DNA of 64,000 nt from Promethearchaeota archaeon (GTDB taxonomy: Archaea > Asgardarchaeota > Lokiarchaeia > Sigyniarchaeales > SOKP01): the NCBI GenBank assembly GCA_048939995.1, contig JBHLOY010000003.1, positions 397,345 to 461,344 of the forward strand, in the 5' to 3' direction. The notes beneath the pieces were generated by a model. That model worked only from the letters and a program-made list of their open reading frames with translations, was not told the origin of the DNA and ran no database searches. Positions 15,950 to 23,278 of this stretch are shown piece by piece; position 1 is the first letter of the stretch, and each line of letters starts with the position of its first letter. Both the position numbers and the translations under genes were made by a program.

Positions 15950-16384
15950 ATGATTGATATATCTAACAAAGAAACAATTCTTAGGATAGCCACAGCCTCG
16001 GGCGGGATTAAACTAAAAAAAGAAACAATTGATAAGATTAGGAATAACCAAGTTGAAAAGGGAGATGCATTAACTATAGCTAAAATTACTGCTATTAGTG
16101 CAGTAAAAAAAGTTCCTGAATTAGTTCCTTTTTGTCATCCCATTGACATAACAAATGTTGATGTAGATTTTGAGATCGAGGATGAAAAAATAAATGTAAT
16201 ATGTAAAGTTAAGAGTATCGCTAAAACAGGAGTTGAAATAGAAGCTCTAACTGGAGTTAGTATCGCCCTTTTGAACTTATGGGATGTAGTTAAGAAATAT
16301 GAAAAGGATGATAAGGGACAATATCCCACAACAGAAATTTTTGACATAAGTGTTGTAGAAAAAATCAAAAAATGGAACTCTTAG
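15950..16384 (+). CDS. moaC: Cyclic pyranopterin monophosphate synthase
   Basis: [43 protein letters not shown]. Confidence 0.95.
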
Positions 16385-16387
16385 GAT

Positions 16388-17308
16388 ATGAAAGATAAAT
16401 GTAACAGAGAAATTAAGCACATTAGATTTTCTATTACCTCTAAATGTAATTATGATTGCATTTATTGTGATCAAGAAGGTTTTATCCCTAAAACTTCAGA
16501 TTTAACTGTTAAAGAAATCACTAATTTATGTAAAATATTAGCTGAAATACTTAAAGTAACAAGAATTAAGTTTACTGGAGGAGAACCTTTATGTCGAGAA
16601 GAAGTCGTTCAAATAATAAAAAATGTGGCTGATCTGCACTTATACAAAGATATTTCCATAACTACTAATGGATTGCTTTTATATGAAAAAGCAGATGAAT
16701 TATATAAATCAGGCTTAAATAGGATAAATGTTTCATTGGGATCACTCAACCGAGAAGTATATAAATTTATATATGGTTCAGATACTCTAAATAGGGTTTT
16801 GATGGGTTTAAAACTAGCGAAAGAAGTAGGGTTAAATCCAATAAAATTAAATTTTGTTTTAATGAAGGGACTTAATGATAATGAATTAGAGTCTATGTTC
16901 GACTTTTGCGGAAAAAATGGATACATTCTACAATTAATTGAATTACACGAAGTATCAAGTTCAGTAGTAAAGAATGGTGAATTTTATAGTAAATATCACA
17001 TGGATATTAAACCTATCATAGATAAACTTGAATCAAGAGCAAAAAAAACAATAATAAGAGGTTCTATGCAAAATCGAAAAGTCTTCATATTACCTAATTC
17101 AGTAACAATTGAAACAATCACACCTAGTCATGAATCTTGTATGGGCTGCACTAAATTGCGTGTAGGATGTGATGGAAATCTTTTTGGATGTTTATATCGA
17201 TCTGAACTTGGAAAGAATATTAAGGAAGCTCTGAAGAATCATTATTCATTATCCAAATATGAAGAAATTGTCAAACAAGTGGTAGATTCACGAGAGCCTT
17301 ACTATTAA
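16388..17308 (+). CDS. moaA: GTP 3',8-cyclase (radical SAM)
   Basis: RFSIT..CNYDCIYC, TGGEPL, TTNG, C-terminal CMGCTKLR...GCL. Confidence 0.93.
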   Translation: MKDKCNREIKHIRFSITSKCNYDCIYCDQEGFIPKTSDLTVKEITNLCKILAEILKVTRIKFTGGEPLCREEVVQIIKNVADLHLYKDISITTNGLLLYEKADELYKSGLNRINVSLGSLNREVYKFIYGSDTLNRVLMGLKLAKEVGLNPIKLNFVLMKGLNDNELESMFDFCGKNGYILQLIELHEVSSSVVKNGEFYSKYHMDIKPIIDKLESRAKKTIIRGSMQNRKVFILPNSVTIETITPSHESCMGCTKLRVGCDGNLFGCLYRSELGKNIKEALKNHYSLSKYEEIVKQVVDSREPYY

Positions 17309-17334
17309 CAAATATTAAAATATGAATTGAAATT

Positions 17335-17613
17335 ATGAAAGTAGAAGTTCTATATTTTGCGGAATTTAAGGAGATAACAAGAAAAGAGAAAGAGGAATTT
17401 AATTTATCTAGTGAAAATTTACTGGACCTATTAAATTTATTATTTGATAAATATAAGCTAAAAGATTTAATTTGGGATGAAAGATGTCAAAAAATACATG
17501 ATATGATTTCAATTATAATAAATAACCAATCTATTCAAGAGAAAAATCCTTTATTAATTAGTTTAAAGAATGGGGATAAAGTTGCTTTTTTATTACCAGT
17601 ATCAGGAGGGTAA
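17335..17613 (+). CDS. moaD: Molybdopterin synthase sulfur carrier (MoaD/SAMP ubiquitin-like)
   Basis: VEVLYFA...LKNGDKVAFLLPVSGG with C-terminal GG. Confidence 0.9.
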   Translation: MKVEVLYFAEFKEITRKEKEEFNLSSENLLDLLNLLFDKYKLKDLIWDERCQKIHDMISIIINNQSIQEKNPLLISLKNGDKVAFLLPVSGG

Positions 17614-17619
17614 AATCTA

Positions 17620-18063
17620 ATGAAAGGTGGGATAAAAATTAAATCTGGGATATATAATAAAGGAGAAATTGAATTAGAAAGCATAATTAATTCTGTTAAG
17701 GCAAATCCCAAAATAAAGGAAGCTGGATCTATCCATACTTTTACTGGAATTGTAAGGAATAGTTCTAATAATGGCAAACCAGTAATTGGAATGAAAATTG
17801 ATGCATATGATGAATTAGCCAGTAAAAGTATAACTGATATTTGTGAAAGATTGAAGAGAATAAACGGAATTATAGATATTAAAATTATTCATTTAAAGGG
17901 AGATTTTAATCTTTCTGAAGATTTAGTTTATGTTGTTGTAGCATCTGCACACAGAAAAGAAGGGTTTGAGGTTATTAAAAAAGCGATTGAAATGTACAAA
18001 AAAGAAGTAGCAGTTTGGAAGAGAGAAGATTTTAATGATGGAACATCAGAATGGATTCATTAA
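17620..18063 (+). CDS. moaE: Molybdopterin synthase catalytic subunit
   Basis: GSIHTFTGIVR, VVVASAHRKEGF, VWKRE...SEWI. Confidence 0.92.
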   Translation: MKGGIKIKSGIYNKGEIELESIINSVKANPKIKEAGSIHTFTGIVRNSSNNGKPVIGMKIDAYDELASKSITDICERLKRINGIIDIKIIHLKGDFNLSEDLVYVVVASAHRKEGFEVIKKAIEMYKKEVAVWKREDFNDGTSEWIH

Positions 18064-18105
18064 ATTGATTTAGAAAATACTAAATTATGAGTTTTATATA
18101 CAAAA

Positions 18106-19335
18106 ATGAAATTTCTAAAGACTATTAGCGTGGAAGAGTTTAGAACTATACTTAATTCAATAGAAAAGATTACTCCCTCCGATGAACTAGTCTCTTTAGA
18201 AGATAGCTTTAAGAGAATAATTTCTAAAGACATAGTTAGTCGAATAAATGTTCCACATTTTAGAAAGTCACGGATGGATGGGTATGCTGTAATTGCTGAG
18301 GACACATTCGAAGCAGAAGAAGACAATTTAGTCGAGCTTGAATTAATTGACACAATAAAAGCGGGAGAAATCCCTCAAAGGAAGCTAAAAACCGGTCAAT
18401 GTTCTTATGTAGCAACAGGAGCTGCAATCCCAGATAATTCTAATGGAGTAGTAATGGTCGAGTTCACAGAAAAATTAATAAATAATAAAATTTTAATTTC
18501 TAAGGCTATAACCCCTGGAACTCATATTATAGAAATCGGACATGATATAAAAAAGGGGGATATCATTGTGAAAAAAGACAAATTGATTGATTTAGCTACT
18601 TTAGGGATTTTTGCTTCATGTGGTATCAGAGATGTACCTGTTTATGAGAAACCAATCGTTAGTCTTATAAGTACCGGTAATGAATTAGTAAATCAAGATA
18701 CAGAAGAATTAGAAATTGGAAAGATATATGATGTAAATTCAATCCTTCTAAAAAAGGCTTTAGAAAACACAGGAGTTCATGTGAATTTTTTAGGCGTAGT
18801 GAGGGATGATTATGAAGATTTGAAGAATGCTATGGATACTGCCTTAGAAAATAGCGATATTATCATATTATCAGGTGGAACATCTAAAGGAGAAGGTGAT
18901 TTAGGACCAAGACTTTTAGAACAATATAAGGATATCGAAATTGAAGTACATGGAGTCAAAATTAAGCCAGGAAAGCCAATAATTTTTGCTAAACTAAAGG
19001 AAAAAATAATCTTTATTTTGCCAGGATATCCAACCTCTGCGTTAAGTTGTTTTTTCCTTTTTATAGATAATTTCTTAAGGAGAATGTCAGGTTATCCTTT
19101 AAGAGACCGATTTTCAAAAGAACTAGAAATTGGAGAGAGAATTTATAGCACCCTTGGCAGACATGAGTTTAAAGCCGTACAAATGCAGGAAGTGGACGGA
19201 AAAAAGAAAATATTTCCTATAAAGACGGGATCAGAAGCGATAAGTACAATGTTCTATGCAGATGGATATATAGAGATTGAGGAGTTGGAATCAGTTATAG
19301 AAAAGGGAGATAAAAGAATGATATATTTCTTCTAA
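18106..19335 (+). CDS. moeA: Molybdopterin molybdo/tungsto-transferase MoeA
   Basis: SRMDGYAV, ATGAAIP, STGNEL, SGGTSKG, KPGKP, LPGYP. Confidence 0.93.
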   Translation: MKFLKTISVEEFRTILNSIEKITPSDELVSLEDSFKRIISKDIVSRINVPHFRKSRMDGYAVIAEDTFEAEEDNLVELELIDTIKAGEIPQRKLKTGQCSYVATGAAIPDNSNGVVMVEFTEKLINNKILISKAITPGTHIIEIGHDIKKGDIIVKKDKLIDLATLGIFASCGIRDVPVYEKPIVSLISTGNELVNQDTEELEIGKIYDVNSILLKKALENTGVHVNFLGVVRDDYEDLKNAMDTALENSDIIILSGGTSKGEGDLGPRLLEQYKDIEIEVHGVKIKPGKPIIFAKLKEKIIFILPGYPTSALSCFFLFIDNFLRRMSGYPLRDRFSKELEIGERIYSTLGRHEFKAVQMQEVDGKKKIFPIKTGSEAISTMFYADGYIEIEELESVIEKGDKRMIYFF

Positions 19336-19361
19336 ATAAATTAATTTAAATTAATAAAACA

Positions 19362-19931
19362 ATGATAAAAATGGTAAAAGAAGTAAAAGTTCCAGAAGAA
19401 CATAAAAAAAATGCTCCTGAAAAAATAAATTTGGCTCTGATTATTGTAAGCACTAGTCGATTTAATGAGATCGAGTCTGGAAAAAAAAGTTCGGATAAAA
19501 CTATCCCTAGAGTACAACAAATATTAGATGATAATAACTCGCTTTCATTAAACTTTACATCTATTATATCAGATTCAGAAGAACATATAGAAAAAACCCT
19601 CTCTCAGGTAATGAAGGATCCTACTATTGATGCAATAATCTTTAGTGGTGGCACTGGATTGTCAAGAAAAGATATTACCTATGAAACCTTGGAACCGCGA
19701 TTAAAAAAGAAAATTAATGGTTTTGGAGAACTTTTTAGATCACTTTCTTTCAATGAAATTGGGGCCTCAGCTATGCTATCAAGGGCAACGGCAGGTATTT
19801 TGAGAGGTGAAGAGAAGAATAAAGCTATTTTTTTACTGCCAGGGTCTCCAAATGCAGTGAAATTAGCTTTAAATCATATTATAATACCTGAATTGGGACA
19901 TATTTTATATATAATCAATAAGCAAGAGTGA
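19362..19931 (+). CDS. moaB: Molybdopterin adenylyltransferase MoaB/MogA
   Basis: SGGTGLSRKDIT.E, GFGELFR.LS, AMLSRA.AG, LPGSPNAV. Confidence 0.92.
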   Translation: MIKMVKEVKVPEEHKKNAPEKINLALIIVSTSRFNEIESGKKSSDKTIPRVQQILDDNNSLSLNFTSIISDSEEHIEKTLSQVMKDPTIDAIIFSGGTGLSRKDITYETLEPRLKKKINGFGELFRSLSFNEIGASAMLSRATAGILRGEEKNKAIFLLPGSPNAVKLALNHIIIPELGHILYIINKQE

Positions 19932-21184
19932 TACTTGTGGAAAAACTCCGAAAAATTGGATTTTCCAAGTTAACACCGATAAATGATGCTTTAGGCAAAT
20001 TATTTTCAAAAATTCAAGAAAGTTCAATTGAAGAAATTGAAATTAAGCATGCTCTAAATCGCATTTTAGCAGAAGATATAGTCAGTGAATTGGATATCCC
20101 TCCATTTGATCGATCAGCTATGGATGGTTATGCTATTAAAGCAGAAGATTCATTTAATGCTTCACTAAAAAACCCGAAAAAGATTAAACTTATTGGAATT
20201 ATTGAAATCGGAGAATCTGCAAACTTTAAAGTTCATAAAGGTGAAGCGTGTAAAATTTCCACAGGGGCACCACTACCAGAAGGTACTGATGCAGTTATAA
20301 AAATTGAAGATACAGAATTAGAAAATGATTTAATTAGTTTATACACATCTTTAGTCCCAGGAAAAAATGTTTCAAAGAAAGGAGAAGATATTAAGAAAGG
20401 AACCCAAGTATTAAAAAAAGGTTTGGACCTAAAGGCTGAACATATTGCACTTCTCTCTTCTTTAGGGTATAACTATGTAAGAGTAAAAGTTAAACCAAGA
20501 GTAAGTATTTTTGCATCTGGAGATGAACTACTTGAACCTGGTGATACCTTGAAACCGGGTAAAATTTACAATTCAAACACTCTAATGATCTCAACCTTAG
20601 TGAATTTATATGGAGGGCTTGTCATTAGAGCTGAAACTGTTAAAGATGACAAATCCATTATTAAAAAGAGACTAATTGAAGCAAAAGATGACTCTCAGAT
20701 TCTAGTCTTCACCGGAGGCACATCAGTTGGCACAAAAGATTATCTACCTGAAATAATTAATGAATTAGGTATCATTTTAACTCATGGTATAGCAATGAGG
20801 CCAGGATCACCTGTTTTATTAGGTCTCCTTAATGATACTCTTATTTTTTGTCTACCTGGTACACCAGTCGCAGCATATGTTTCATTTTTAAAAATAACTG
20901 GACTTGCTATTAGAAAAATGTTAGGATGCTCTATCTTAGATCCAAGAGTCGAAATTTTAGCAATAATTAATAAAGATGTTCCTGTTTCAAGCTTAGGAAT
21001 TCTACATTATTTAAGAGTAAAAATAGAACAAGATAATTATAACTATGTAGCTTATCCAATTAAATTGAAAGGTTCTAGTATTATAACTTCATTGATACAC
21101 TCAGATGGAATAGTTGAAATCCCTCCAAATCAAGAAGGATTGAAAAAGGGAGAAATAGTCAATGTGAAACTCTTTCCTAAATAA
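19928..21184 (+). CDS. moeA: Second MoeA paralog
   Basis: PPFDRSAMDGYA, ISTGAPLPEG, SGDEL, TGGTSVG, RPGSP, LPGTP. Confidence 0.93.
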   Translation: MILVEKLRKIGFSKLTPINDALGKLFSKIQESSIEEIEIKHALNRILAEDIVSELDIPPFDRSAMDGYAIKAEDSFNASLKNPKKIKLIGIIEIGESANFKVHKGEACKISTGAPLPEGTDAVIKIEDTELENDLISLYTSLVPGKNVSKKGEDIKKGTQVLKKGLDLKAEHIALLSSLGYNYVRVKVKPRVSIFASGDELLEPGDTLKPGKIYNSNTLMISTLVNLYGGLVIRAETVKDDKSIIKKRLIEAKDDSQILVFTGGTSVGTKDYLPEIINELGIILTHGIAMRPGSPVLLGLLNDTLIFCLPGTPVAAYVSFLKITGLAIRKMLGCSILDPRVEILAIINKDVPVSSLGILHYLRVKIEQDNYNYVAYPIKLKGSSIITSLIHSDGIVEIPPNQEGLKKGEIVNVKLFPK

Positions 21185-21293: not shown

Positions 21294-22166
21294 ATGGTTA
21301 ATACCTCAGAGATAGTTAAAGATCTACAGCAAAAATATCGAATTATTGGAAGAAATACGGAACTAAGCAAGATTATACTTGCTAGATCTGTTGGAAAGCA
21401 TATTTTGATTGAAGGTGAAGTCGGTGTTGGAAAAACTACTATAGCTCGCGCAATAGCATCTTATTTTGATTCAGATTTTTATAGAATAGATTGTAATGAG
21501 GAAACTTTATCGCACAATTTGGTTGGGTTTTGGGATCCTCCCTTAGTAATCGCGAAAGGTTATATCGAAGAATCATACGTTTATGGACCGCTTTCTTCAG
21601 CTATGTTAAAAGGGGGATGTTTATTCATTAATGAAATAAATAGAATGCCAGAGAGCACTCAAAATTCTCTTTTAACCGCTTTAGATGAAGGAATAATTGA
21701 AATTCCTAAATTAAAAACAATAAAATCCGATAAGAAATTCTTTGTTATTGCCACGCAAAATCCTGGAGCTCATGTAGGGGTAACTGTTTTAGGTGAAGCT
21801 TTAAAGGATAGATTCATATGGATCAAATTAGATTACCAAACACCAGAAGAAGAAATCTTAATCATAAAAAAAGAAGCAAATTTAAATAACTCTAATACAG
21901 ATAAGATCGCCAAAATTTGCCAAAATATAATTCAATTAACAAGAGAAAGTGCTTCAATCCGAAGAGGTAGTTCAATTAGGGGCGCAATAGATCTTGCAGG
22001 ATTAGTTTTGAATTCAGGAAAACAAACTAGCACAAGAAATTGGGTAGAAGCAGGTATTATGGCTCTATACAACAAGATTGAATTAGAAGATGGAGTAACT
22101 AAATCTAAAACAGAAATAATTACAGATATTATCCTTTCCACTCTAACTAAGCTGGATTTTCAGTAA
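21294..22166 (+). CDS. MoxR-family AAA+ ATPase
   Basis: GEVGVGKT Walker A, LFINEINR Walker B variant, ATQNP, ALKDRF, SSIRGAI. Confidence 0.9.
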   Translation: MVNTSEIVKDLQQKYRIIGRNTELSKIILARSVGKHILIEGEVGVGKTTIARAIASYFDSDFYRIDCNEETLSHNLVGFWDPPLVIAKGYIEESYVYGPLSSAMLKGGCLFINEINRMPESTQNSLLTALDEGIIEIPKLKTIKSDKKFFVIATQNPGAHVGVTVLGEALKDRFIWIKLDYQTPEEEILIIKKEANLNNSNTDKIAKICQNIIQLTRESASIRRGSSIRGAIDLAGLVLNSGKQTSTRNWVEAGIMALYNKIELEDGVTKSKTEIITDIILSTLTKLDFQ

Positions 22167-22321
22167 TCGATGATTTCTCTTCAAAAAAGTCTGAAGAGAT
22201 TGAGAATAAACGGTTACATGTAAGGTTAACAGAAAAACTTCCCGATAAAGAAATTTTAAGATATGAAATCATTAGAAAAAAGAGAAAAAGACCTAATTAT
22301 TATCAACATCTAGCAAATTCT

Positions 22322-23278
22322 TTGGATTATAAACAGATTAAGGAATTAACCTATTTAGCAATTGAATATAAAAATCTAGAGGCTATTATCGGTTTACTCA
22401 AGTCAAACGTTTATGCTGCGACTGATGCCTTAGATTGCGATGAGGGTGTTAAATTTTTCTCTGAAAAAGCAAAAGATTCGGCAACCTCTATGGCAGAGGT
22501 TTACTTTTTTATAAGACGACCCATATCTGAAAAGTATAAAAAGATATTTAGGAGATTAGCTCGGCAAAGTATATTGAAAACAGCGCTCAAAATCACGAGT
22601 AAAGGTATAAGAGGAAATTACAAGAAAGTTATCCCTCATTACGAAATCGGTATGCCCGAATTTGATTTGGATGAGACAATTCAGCATAATCCGTTAAAAA
22701 TCTATCAAAAAACTCTTACCTATAACGATATTTATGGCATTAAAAGAATGCAACAAAAGCGTAAGATTGTATTGATTCTAGACACAAGTGGGAGCATGTA
22801 TGGACGACTACTTCTCAATGCGGCTTTAACAGCTTCTGTGCTTGCCTATAATATGGAAAAAGAAGATTATGCGATAATATTATTTAACTCAACAGCAATG
22901 ATCTTAAAAAAGATCGATGAAAAAAAACCTATTACAACTATTATAGATGATATTTTAGACTCTGAAGCAAGTGGTTTTACAAACATCTATATTGGTTTAG
23001 AAAAAGGATTAAAAGAATTAAATAAAGTTAAAAAGGAACCGAGAAATCAATTCGGAATTTTAATAACAGATGGAAATTATAATCGAGGCGAAAACCCACT
23101 TAACTTGGCCGAAGATTATTCTAAACTGCATGTAATAGGAATGCCAGCTGAAAACGATGCAGATAGAGGAATTGATGTATGTAAAGAAATCGCCAATAAA
23201 GGAAGAGGAAAATTTTATGCGGTAAAAGATTATAAAGAAATTCCAAGAGCCCTAATAGATTTATTATCACAATATTGA
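22322..23278 (+). CDS. von Willebrand factor A domain protein; frame is open from 22151, so possibly translated as a -1 frameshift fusion with MoxR
   Basis: MIDAS DTSGSM, GFTNI, ITDG. The 57 open codons upstream lack ATG/GTG/TTG. Confidence 0.88.
   Translation: MDYKQIKELTYLAIEYKNLEAIIGLLKSNVYAATDALDCDEGVKFFSEKAKDSATSMAEVYFFIRRPISEKYKKIFRRLARQSILKTALKITSKGIRGNYKKVIPHYEIGMPEFDLDETIQHNPLKIYQKTLTYNDIYGIKRMQQKRKIVLILDTSGSMYGRLLLNAALTASVLAYNMEKEDYAIILFNSTAMILKKIDEKKPITTIIDDILDSEASGFTNIYIGLEKGLKELNKVKKEPRNQFGILITDGNYNRGENPLNLAEDYSKLHVIGMPAENDADRGIDVCKEIANKGRGKFYAVKDYKEIPRALIDLLSQY

Follow-up and report, generated by a model that had tools for sequence, protein, structure and literature searches.

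Do the overlapping reading frames for a MoxR-class AAA+ ATPase and a vWA protein in the genome of a Promethearchaeota archaeon represent two genes, or a single gene whose message is read in two frames? The locus lies within the 64,000-nucleotide stretch of DNA that we analysed (contig JBHLOY010000003.1, positions 397,345 to 461,344; hereafter the window), and an earlier note, made from the letters alone, had read it as a -1 ribosomal frameshift. Our comparison of orthologous loci supports this reading through the conserved phase of the two frames, a covarying heptamer, the lack of a conserved start, a downstream structure, and the existence of fused homologs. The most likely explanation of these sequence patterns is that, in most Asgard archaea, one message gives rise to a short ATPase and a longer ATPase-vWA protein through a -1 slip before a conserved kinked hairpin. 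We assign a probability of about 0.87 to the reading that the two ORFs are one gene, recoded by programmed -1 frameshifting at a kink-turn (k-turn) hairpin.

Organization of the locus

The ATPase ORF occupies positions 21294-22166 of the forward strand in the zero frame, and its 290 aa would be the product of normal termination (Pfam AAA_5 1e-21, AAA_3 2e-20). Its translation contains a Walker A motif, GEVGVGKT (21414-21437), and a variant Walker B motif, LFINE (21621-21635), in which Asn replaces the usual Asp; family comparison showed that this N-E (hhhNE instead of hhhDE) is invariant across the family. The ORF ends in CTG GAT TTT CAG TAA, with the heptamer G_GAU_UUU at 22154-22160 and the MoxR stop at 22164-22166, 3 nt past the heptamer. 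A TAA in the -1 frame (22148-22150) limits the possible shift window to 16 nt, counting in the MoxR stop, and the -1 frame is then open from 22151 to 23278, a total of 375 codons. All of the coordinates previously given for the ORFs, this TAA, the heptamer, the 57 codons without ATG/GTG/TTG, and an 8-bp stem were confirmed on the sequence. The predicted slip product is 661 aa long, with LDF followed by SVIDDFSSK at the junction, and 372 of these residues (22160-23278) would come from the -1 frame. They comprise an acidic linker, a conserved helical segment, and a vWA domain, as judged from translation, Pfam, and the third-position-biased changes upstream of TTG 22322 (see below). The vWA domain carries the MIDAS motif DTSGS (22781-22795; translation and Pfam VWA), and an AAA_5/AAA_3 ATPase next to a MIDAS vWA protein is the arrangement of a MoxR AAA+/vWA pair.

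Within this genome there are 174 long ORF pairs that overlap in the -1 phase, and in only 12 of them does the downstream frame lack a start for 20 or more codons. Among those 12, the MoxR/vWA pair alone has a slippery heptamer 0-3 nt before the stop, which is more than chance would give in this genome. Directly upstream of the locus is a molybdopterin biosynthesis cluster (15950-21184; moaC, moaA, moaD, moaE, moeA, moaB, and moeA, identified by translation, with the last also checked using Pfam). We considered a role in the maturation of molybdopterin enzymes and rejected it, as moeA adjoins the pair in only five other loci (short flanks were available) and the cluster is not a conserved neighbour.

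Conservation of the -1 junction in Asgard archaea

We searched 301 Asgard genomes with the vWA query (E<=1e-30) and obtained matches in 183; none of the 76 genomes of family f12 was matched with this query. The junction was examined in 106 loci, of which one is a duplicate and one is the window itself. The two frames are in the -1 phase in 101 of these loci, representing 20 of 21 Asgard families, while the remaining five, all from family f32, are in the +1 phase. The loci are related and so not independent of one another. The -1 junction is also present in two cultured species with closed genomes, Ca. Lokiarchaeum ossiferum (6,035,313 bp; NEF87_002408/NEF87_002409) and Promethearchaeum syntrophicum (QEE14636.1), for which the fusions predicted would read ENF followed by SVEAE and ENF followed by SITAE, respectively, at the junction.

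One could suppose that the split reflects an assembly indel or the decay of a fused gene, given that in-frame AAA-vWA fusions do exist. We regard this as scarcely credible, since a single phase recurs in 101 loci from independent assemblies, closed genomes included, and the vWA frame is under purifying selection. The recurrence in the closed genomes of the two cultured species settles the concern, raised with the original proposal, that an indel might have created the junction.

The exceptional family f32 (L058, L060, L063, L065, and L069) has an invariant TTT_TTT_CGG ahead of the stop, and it is possible that this lineage has switched to +1 frameshifting at UUU_CGG. In four of the five f32 loci there is an ATG 10-13 nt past the stop.

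The slippery heptamer is conserved as a pattern

Comparison among orthologs points to selection on the slippery site at the RNA level. Within the window's own family the heptamer is identical in 31 of 37 loci. Across the Asgard loci, the base ahead of the first codon matches the first base of that codon (X1=X2) in 88 of 99 cases (G 55, A 21, C 7, T 5), against a background of 0.24 obtained for these amino acids within the ORFs concerned. The encoded residues, meanwhile, vary widely (DF, NF, HF, PF, GF, LF, FF, FL, and NP), and it is this retention of the X_XX rule despite changing residues that argues for selection on the RNA. The variants include G_GAU_UUU, A_AAU_UUU, C_CAU_UUU, C_CCU_UUU, G_GGU_UUU, U_UUU_UUM, and A_AAC_CCU, and no model based on initiation predicts such covariation. 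A YYY run lies no more than 12 nt from the stop in 105 of 106 loci, and the stop codon itself falls 0 or 3 nt past the heptamer in 98 of 99. Because the loci are relatives, these counts cannot be read as P-values, but the pattern holds in each family. For comparison, a U-run heptamer 0-3 nt ahead of the stop occurs in only 290 of 2907 ORFs of this genome.

The window's heptamer lies in the zero frame within the overlap and is of the X_XXY_YYZ type, and although G_GAU_UUU is non-canonical, its description as a functional -1 slippery site is borne out by PEMV RNA2, which shifts at this heptamer with a required stop 3 nt downstream (PMC5009743). Two observations count against slippage, namely that G_GAU_UUU allows P-site re-pairing at only two of three positions, and that ten loci have A_GAU_UUU.

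A slip during transcription, with the polymerase producing a longer mRNA on the T-run, would also join the frames. There is a homopolymer at the junction, and some non-Asgard homologs have runs of A9-A11. With just four T at this junction, the run is shorter than the A>7 or T>8 that known cases need (PMC3711429), and transcriptional slippage predicts neither the X1=X2 covariation nor a 3' structure at ribosomal spacing; we consider it very improbable.

In family f10 (Heimdallarchaeum; L066, L067, L073, L075-L077, L157, and L158), G_GAU_UUU_UUN is followed by the stop and then by a conserved purine-rich tract resembling GAGGGAGGAG.

A probable kink-turn downstream of the heptamer

The earlier note had also described a hairpin six nucleotides beyond the heptamer, formed by a TCGA/TTGA pairing, a 5-nt bulge, and an 8-bp stem. 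RNAfold returns this fold (-9.8 kcal/mol, z -1.5 for 46 nt; -15.7 kcal/mol, z -2.8 for 70 nt), so that in the window sequence alone the hairpin is only modestly above chance. The 8-bp stem (22176-83 with 22192-99) is real: across the own-family loci 96% of cells are paired, and two pairs have changed on both sides, which are compensatory changes. The TCGA/TTGA pairing is not kept, as its two T's vary (GG, AT, AA, TC), while TC-GAT-GA and GA-GA are invariant in all 37 own-family loci. This combination points to a k-turn register rather than a 4-bp stem with a 5-nt bulge. The bulged strand (22167-22175) would consist of the C-helix UC, the loop GAU, the sheared G22172 and A22173, and then UU; the NC helix with its terminal loop follows (22176-22199), and the non-bulged strand (22200-22205) supplies UU, the sheared G22202 and A22203, and G22204 and A22205 of the C-helix. 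The resulting pairs are U22167-A22205 and C22168-G22204 in a C-helix of only 2 bp, sheared G22172/A22203 and A22173/G22202, two U-U pairs, and then the 8-bp stem. Some of the codons at the invariant positions are minority codons (ATC 0.18, TTC 0.25, GAG 0.21). In the own family the hairpin begins 6 nt past the heptamer, within the 5-9 nt at which 3' structures stimulate -1 frameshifting. An alternative k-turn register in the window, based on a 5-bp UAAUC/GAUUG helix, was rejected because it breaks in L013 and L014.

The motif recurs beyond this family. A 3-nt bulge followed by tandem G-A/A-G pairs between a C-helix and an NC-helix was found in 15 of 20 families: family f5 has the polarity of the window, and 13 other families have the reversed polarity, with the GA strand first and covarying helices. 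For the reversed form we chose anchors by sequence alone in 42 loci from the 13 families and then scored pairing, which was observed at position -1 in 42/42, -2 in 38/42, -3 in 37/42, -4 in 36/42, 4 in 33/42, and 5 in 34/42 loci, with several pair types. When arms were swapped across families, 0 of 5000 draws reached the real score, and both sequence anchors occur together in just 1.6% of control coding windows. The first GA is 8 or 11 nt past the heptamer, a distance that is held when the stop moves. The acidic linker is rich in GAN codons, which readily give rise to GA-rich patterns; under synonymous resampling, 37.8 k-turn calls were expected against 72 observed (25 against 35 in the own family). 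We relied on the anchored tests because the background of a looser k-turn scan (213/2907) was too high. Taken as a comparative result, the k-turn is very probably a real conserved motif. It is absent in five -1 families (f9, f10, f14, f27, and f33) and in the 12 correctly located linkers of fused homologs (18 segments were taken, and six mislocated ones were left out), and a genome-wide scan revealed no second gene with a slip site and k-turn. Family f27 (L095-L099, L160, L165, and L178) has U_UUU_UUA and a plain 6-10 bp hairpin in place of the k-turn.

As GAUGA resembles box C, and there is a weak Rfam C/D match (E 4.7), a box C/D small RNA might overlap the junction, with the phase being incidental. 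This is highly improbable: the score is far below the gathering threshold and no Rfam match comes near it, only a single k-turn is present rather than boxes C, D', C', and D with guides, no box D or guide is conserved, the polarity flips between families, and such an RNA would supply no start for the vWA protein.

The vWA frame lacks a conserved start

If the vWA protein were made from its own start, a conserved initiation codon would be expected, but the frame runs for 57 codons without ATG/GTG/TTG, up to the TTG at 22322-22324. This mechanical start appears to be an internal Leu codon in relatives, with TTA in 20, TTG in 10, CTA in 3, CTT in 2, CTG in 1, and ATG in 1 of the 37 own-family loci. 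In the 36 codons upstream of it, 537 changes fall at third codon positions compared with 282 and 160 at the others, which indicates that the start-less stretch is translated, and this segment can be aligned to other Asgard families and to natural fusions. None of ATG, GTG, or TTG is conserved as an independent start, in line with the original proposal. As for the ATC/ATT starts that the proposal had also mentioned, an ATC at the stop overlap (TA-ATC, 22166-68) is kept in 36 of 37 own-family loci; it is not conserved in other families, and it has no SD.

That codon is the basis for a two-gene model, in which translation of the vWA gene begins at a non-AUG codon through coupling to termination of the ATPase, and the k-turn is a translational repressor site for L7Ae, as in l7ae leaders. 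The -1 phase is the usual one for TAATG/ATGA coupling, k-turns at start sites repress translation (PMC5539422), and the l7ae leader of this same genome has an identical UC-GAU-GA...GA-GA core. In addition, 65 of 147 SD-anchored long ORFs in this genome have no ATG/GTG/TTG, with ATT, ATA, and ATC among the in-frame codons there. Yet the ATC has no upstream SD (the best match is 3 nt in 31 loci, and there is none in six), and in many families no near-cognate codon is present at the overlap (GTA/GAG in L. ossiferum, TTA/GAA in f21, CTA/GGG in f30). The model also leaves unexplained both the covarying heptamer and the fact that the k-turn tracks the heptamer when the stop shifts by 3 nt (L021, L022, and L100). 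We therefore judge two separate genes to be unlikely, and favour programmed frameshifting.

Two further observations concern initiation in this genome. Raw counts of in-frame codons behind an SD hint at non-AUG initiation genome-wide (ATT 16, ATA 9, ATC 5; for example C38:45239 on the reverse strand and C6:40102 on the forward strand). A paralogous pair of MoxR and an 833-aa vWA protein (L114; G000:C23:4461-7783) has an ordinary SD and ATG start and no slippery site.

Fused homologs and non-Asgard relatives

A search for in-frame fused homologs, which had been proposed as a check, recovered 98 natural AAA-vWA fusions of 567-719 aa, with about 35-53% identity in the ATPase, and 62 of them align with the predicted 661-aa product across the junction in one segment. 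The closest, the Promethearchaeota protein P0041, has a linker of equal length and 42% identity across residues 8-658, and is placed as sister to f27 in a quick tree. Among named genomes, fused forms were found in Bathyarchaeia, Methanomethylicia, and Thermoplasmata. Spirochaetota and other bacteria, as well as Thermoplasmata and Methanomethylicus, have forms split in the -1 phase with A_AAA_AAN, and two TACK genomes have forms that combine a U-run with a plain hairpin. By eye, one locus from Hadarchaeota resembles the Asgard U-run and k-turn, but a strict script gave no call. Because fused and split forms are interleaved in the tree, conversion between them appears to have happened several times, although this quick tree, whose deep branches are weakly supported and whose outgroup is long, cannot order the events. 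Family f27, with its plain hairpin, and the non-Asgard homologs with A_AAA_AAN keep the -1 phase, suggesting that recoding was kept while its signal was swapped.

Two close Methanomethylicia relatives differ in form, one (L129) having a poly-A split and the other (L132) being fused. A Hadarchaeota locus (L171) has an A11 run in the +1 phase, which may reflect slippage or an assembly error.

A possible mechanism and a possible role of L7Ae

We propose that the ribosome pauses with the Asp and Phe tRNAs on GAU UUU, when the hairpin sits at the mRNA entry and the stop lies one codon further on. Ribosomes that terminate would release the 290-aa ATPase, while those slipping one base back would yield the 661-aa ATPase-linker-vWA protein. 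The earlier note's view that the fusion is the minority product and fixes the stoichiometry of ring and adaptor goes further than these comparisons support. By analogy with chlI/chlD (PMC9227772), the two products probably assemble together, giving one AAA+ ring of ATPase with one or a few MIDAS adaptors. The k-turn would serve as the roadblock, its fold held either by Mg2+ or by an L7Ae/L30e clamp.

L7Ae-family genes are present in this genome. Since every k-turn tested folds on L7Ae (PMC6298567) and L7Ae binds k-turns in archaeal mRNAs (PMC5539422), binding to the junction k-turn is likely by analogy. A C:G pair at position -1 favours folding in Mg2+ alone, so L7Ae may be dispensable. The stronger idea, that L7Ae or L30e clamps the k-turn and sets the frameshift rate, such that the level of free L7Ae governs how much ATPase is made relative to ATPase-vWA, and that this control is ancestral to Asgard archaea, is one we put forward tentatively, at somewhat under even odds. 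In the l7ae leader (L201:1372-1417; G000:C11:82252-82297), the UC-GAU-GA...GA-GA core overlaps the SD, as expected for autoregulation.

Provided that frameshifting is real, there is about an even chance that its stimulator is simply a plain hairpin together with the pause at the stop codon, with the kink being Mg2+-folded or incidental and no protein exerting control. The pair at -1b:-1n is C:G in most loci, which allows ion-induced folding free of protein (PMC6298567), plain hairpins take the place of the k-turn in f27 and are found in some TACK homologs, and the 6-nt spacing falls within the 5-9 nt typical of stimulators made of RNA only (PMC8211752). On the other hand, the invariant unpaired GAU-GA and GA, occurring in two polarities, point to a protein-binding or tertiary motif, several of the hairpins are too weak alone (-4.2 kcal/mol and z -0.2 in P. 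syntrophicum), and the folding of every tested k-turn on L7Ae (PMC6298567) again suggests a protein partner.

Comparison with known systems

The closest parallel to the proposed frameshift is fs-chlD of the Mg/Co chelatases (Antonov et al. 2013, PMC3711429; Kuznetsov et al. 2022, PMC9227772), which the earlier note had cited as precedent and which works alike. There too, a -1 shift close to the end of the AAA+ ORF joins it to a vWA ORF, one mRNA yields both a short and a long subunit, in-frame fused homologs exist, and both bacteria and archaea are represented; frameshifting reaches up to 63% in reporters (PMC3711429). In contrast, fs-chlD has a ChlI ATPase and A_AAA_AAR, whereas the locus described here has an ATPase of the MoxR/AAA_5 class and a U-run heptamer with a putative k-turn stimulator, and no chelatase large subunit was seen near it. 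The ATPase scores only 23-24 bits against the ChlI/ChlD-type models, whose cut-offs are 500 and 779 (BchD-ChlD 23 vs 500). It is likewise not an ortholog of GvpN (71 bits vs 267), CobS, or NorQ/CbbQ (NorQ 44 bits).

The umbravirus/dianthovirus signals, such as PEMV RNA2 (PMC5009743), share the heptamer, the stop 3 nt downstream, and a 3' bulged stem-loop, but they are viral, act on the eukaryotic ribosome, and need long-range pairing, and a k-turn has not been reported in them. The k-turns of archaeal mRNAs (Daume et al. 2017, PMC5539422; Huang et al. 2019, PMC6298567) have the same GAU bulge and tandem G-A pairs in a hairpin, with a short C-helix and in either polarity. Those k-turns repress initiation, whereas the MoxR/vWA k-turn is located 6-8 nt behind a slippery site within the coding region. 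Cardiovirus 2A-stimulated frameshifting (G_GUU_UUU; PMC5472766, PMC4524249) shares G_GNU_UUU and, if L7Ae is involved here, a protein-clamped roadblock, but it depends on a viral protein and an unrelated RNA fold. The pairs NorQ/NorD, CbbQ/CbbO, and CoxD/CoxE, as well as midasin, all combine an AAA_5 ATPase with a MIDAS partner; the former are separately started genes and midasin is a single giant chain, and the similarity is at the family level only, with 40-44 bits per domain. A special link to midasin was rejected, as its top PDB match (E 4e-38) arises from summing modules, the best of which gives 40 bits, like NorQ.

Implications

Just as the earlier note knew of no such recoding of MoxR/vWA in Asgard archaea, our literature search, which covered few subscription papers, found no report of MoxR/vWA frameshifting, frameshifting in Asgard archaea, or stimulation of frameshifting by a k-turn or L7Ae; the list of Antonov 2020 may hold members of the family. 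In a 2021 review, fucA1 is the single archaeal gene listed for which cellular -1 frameshifting has been demonstrated (PMC8211752). Databases annotate the recoded gene as two genes with a truncated vWA protein, as in NEF87_002408/NEF87_002409. If our reading is true, this would be a phylum-wide cellular -1 frameshift in the closest prokaryotic relatives of eukaryotes, two cultured species included, and it would extend the trick used by chlD to MoxR chaperones. It also suggests a route by which an adaptor can be kept sub-stoichiometric on a six-fold ring. If the L7Ae/L30e clamp is also true, the locus would be a case of protein-stimulated frameshifting of an archaeal chromosomal gene, using a fold that is otherwise known from sRNPs and translation repression.
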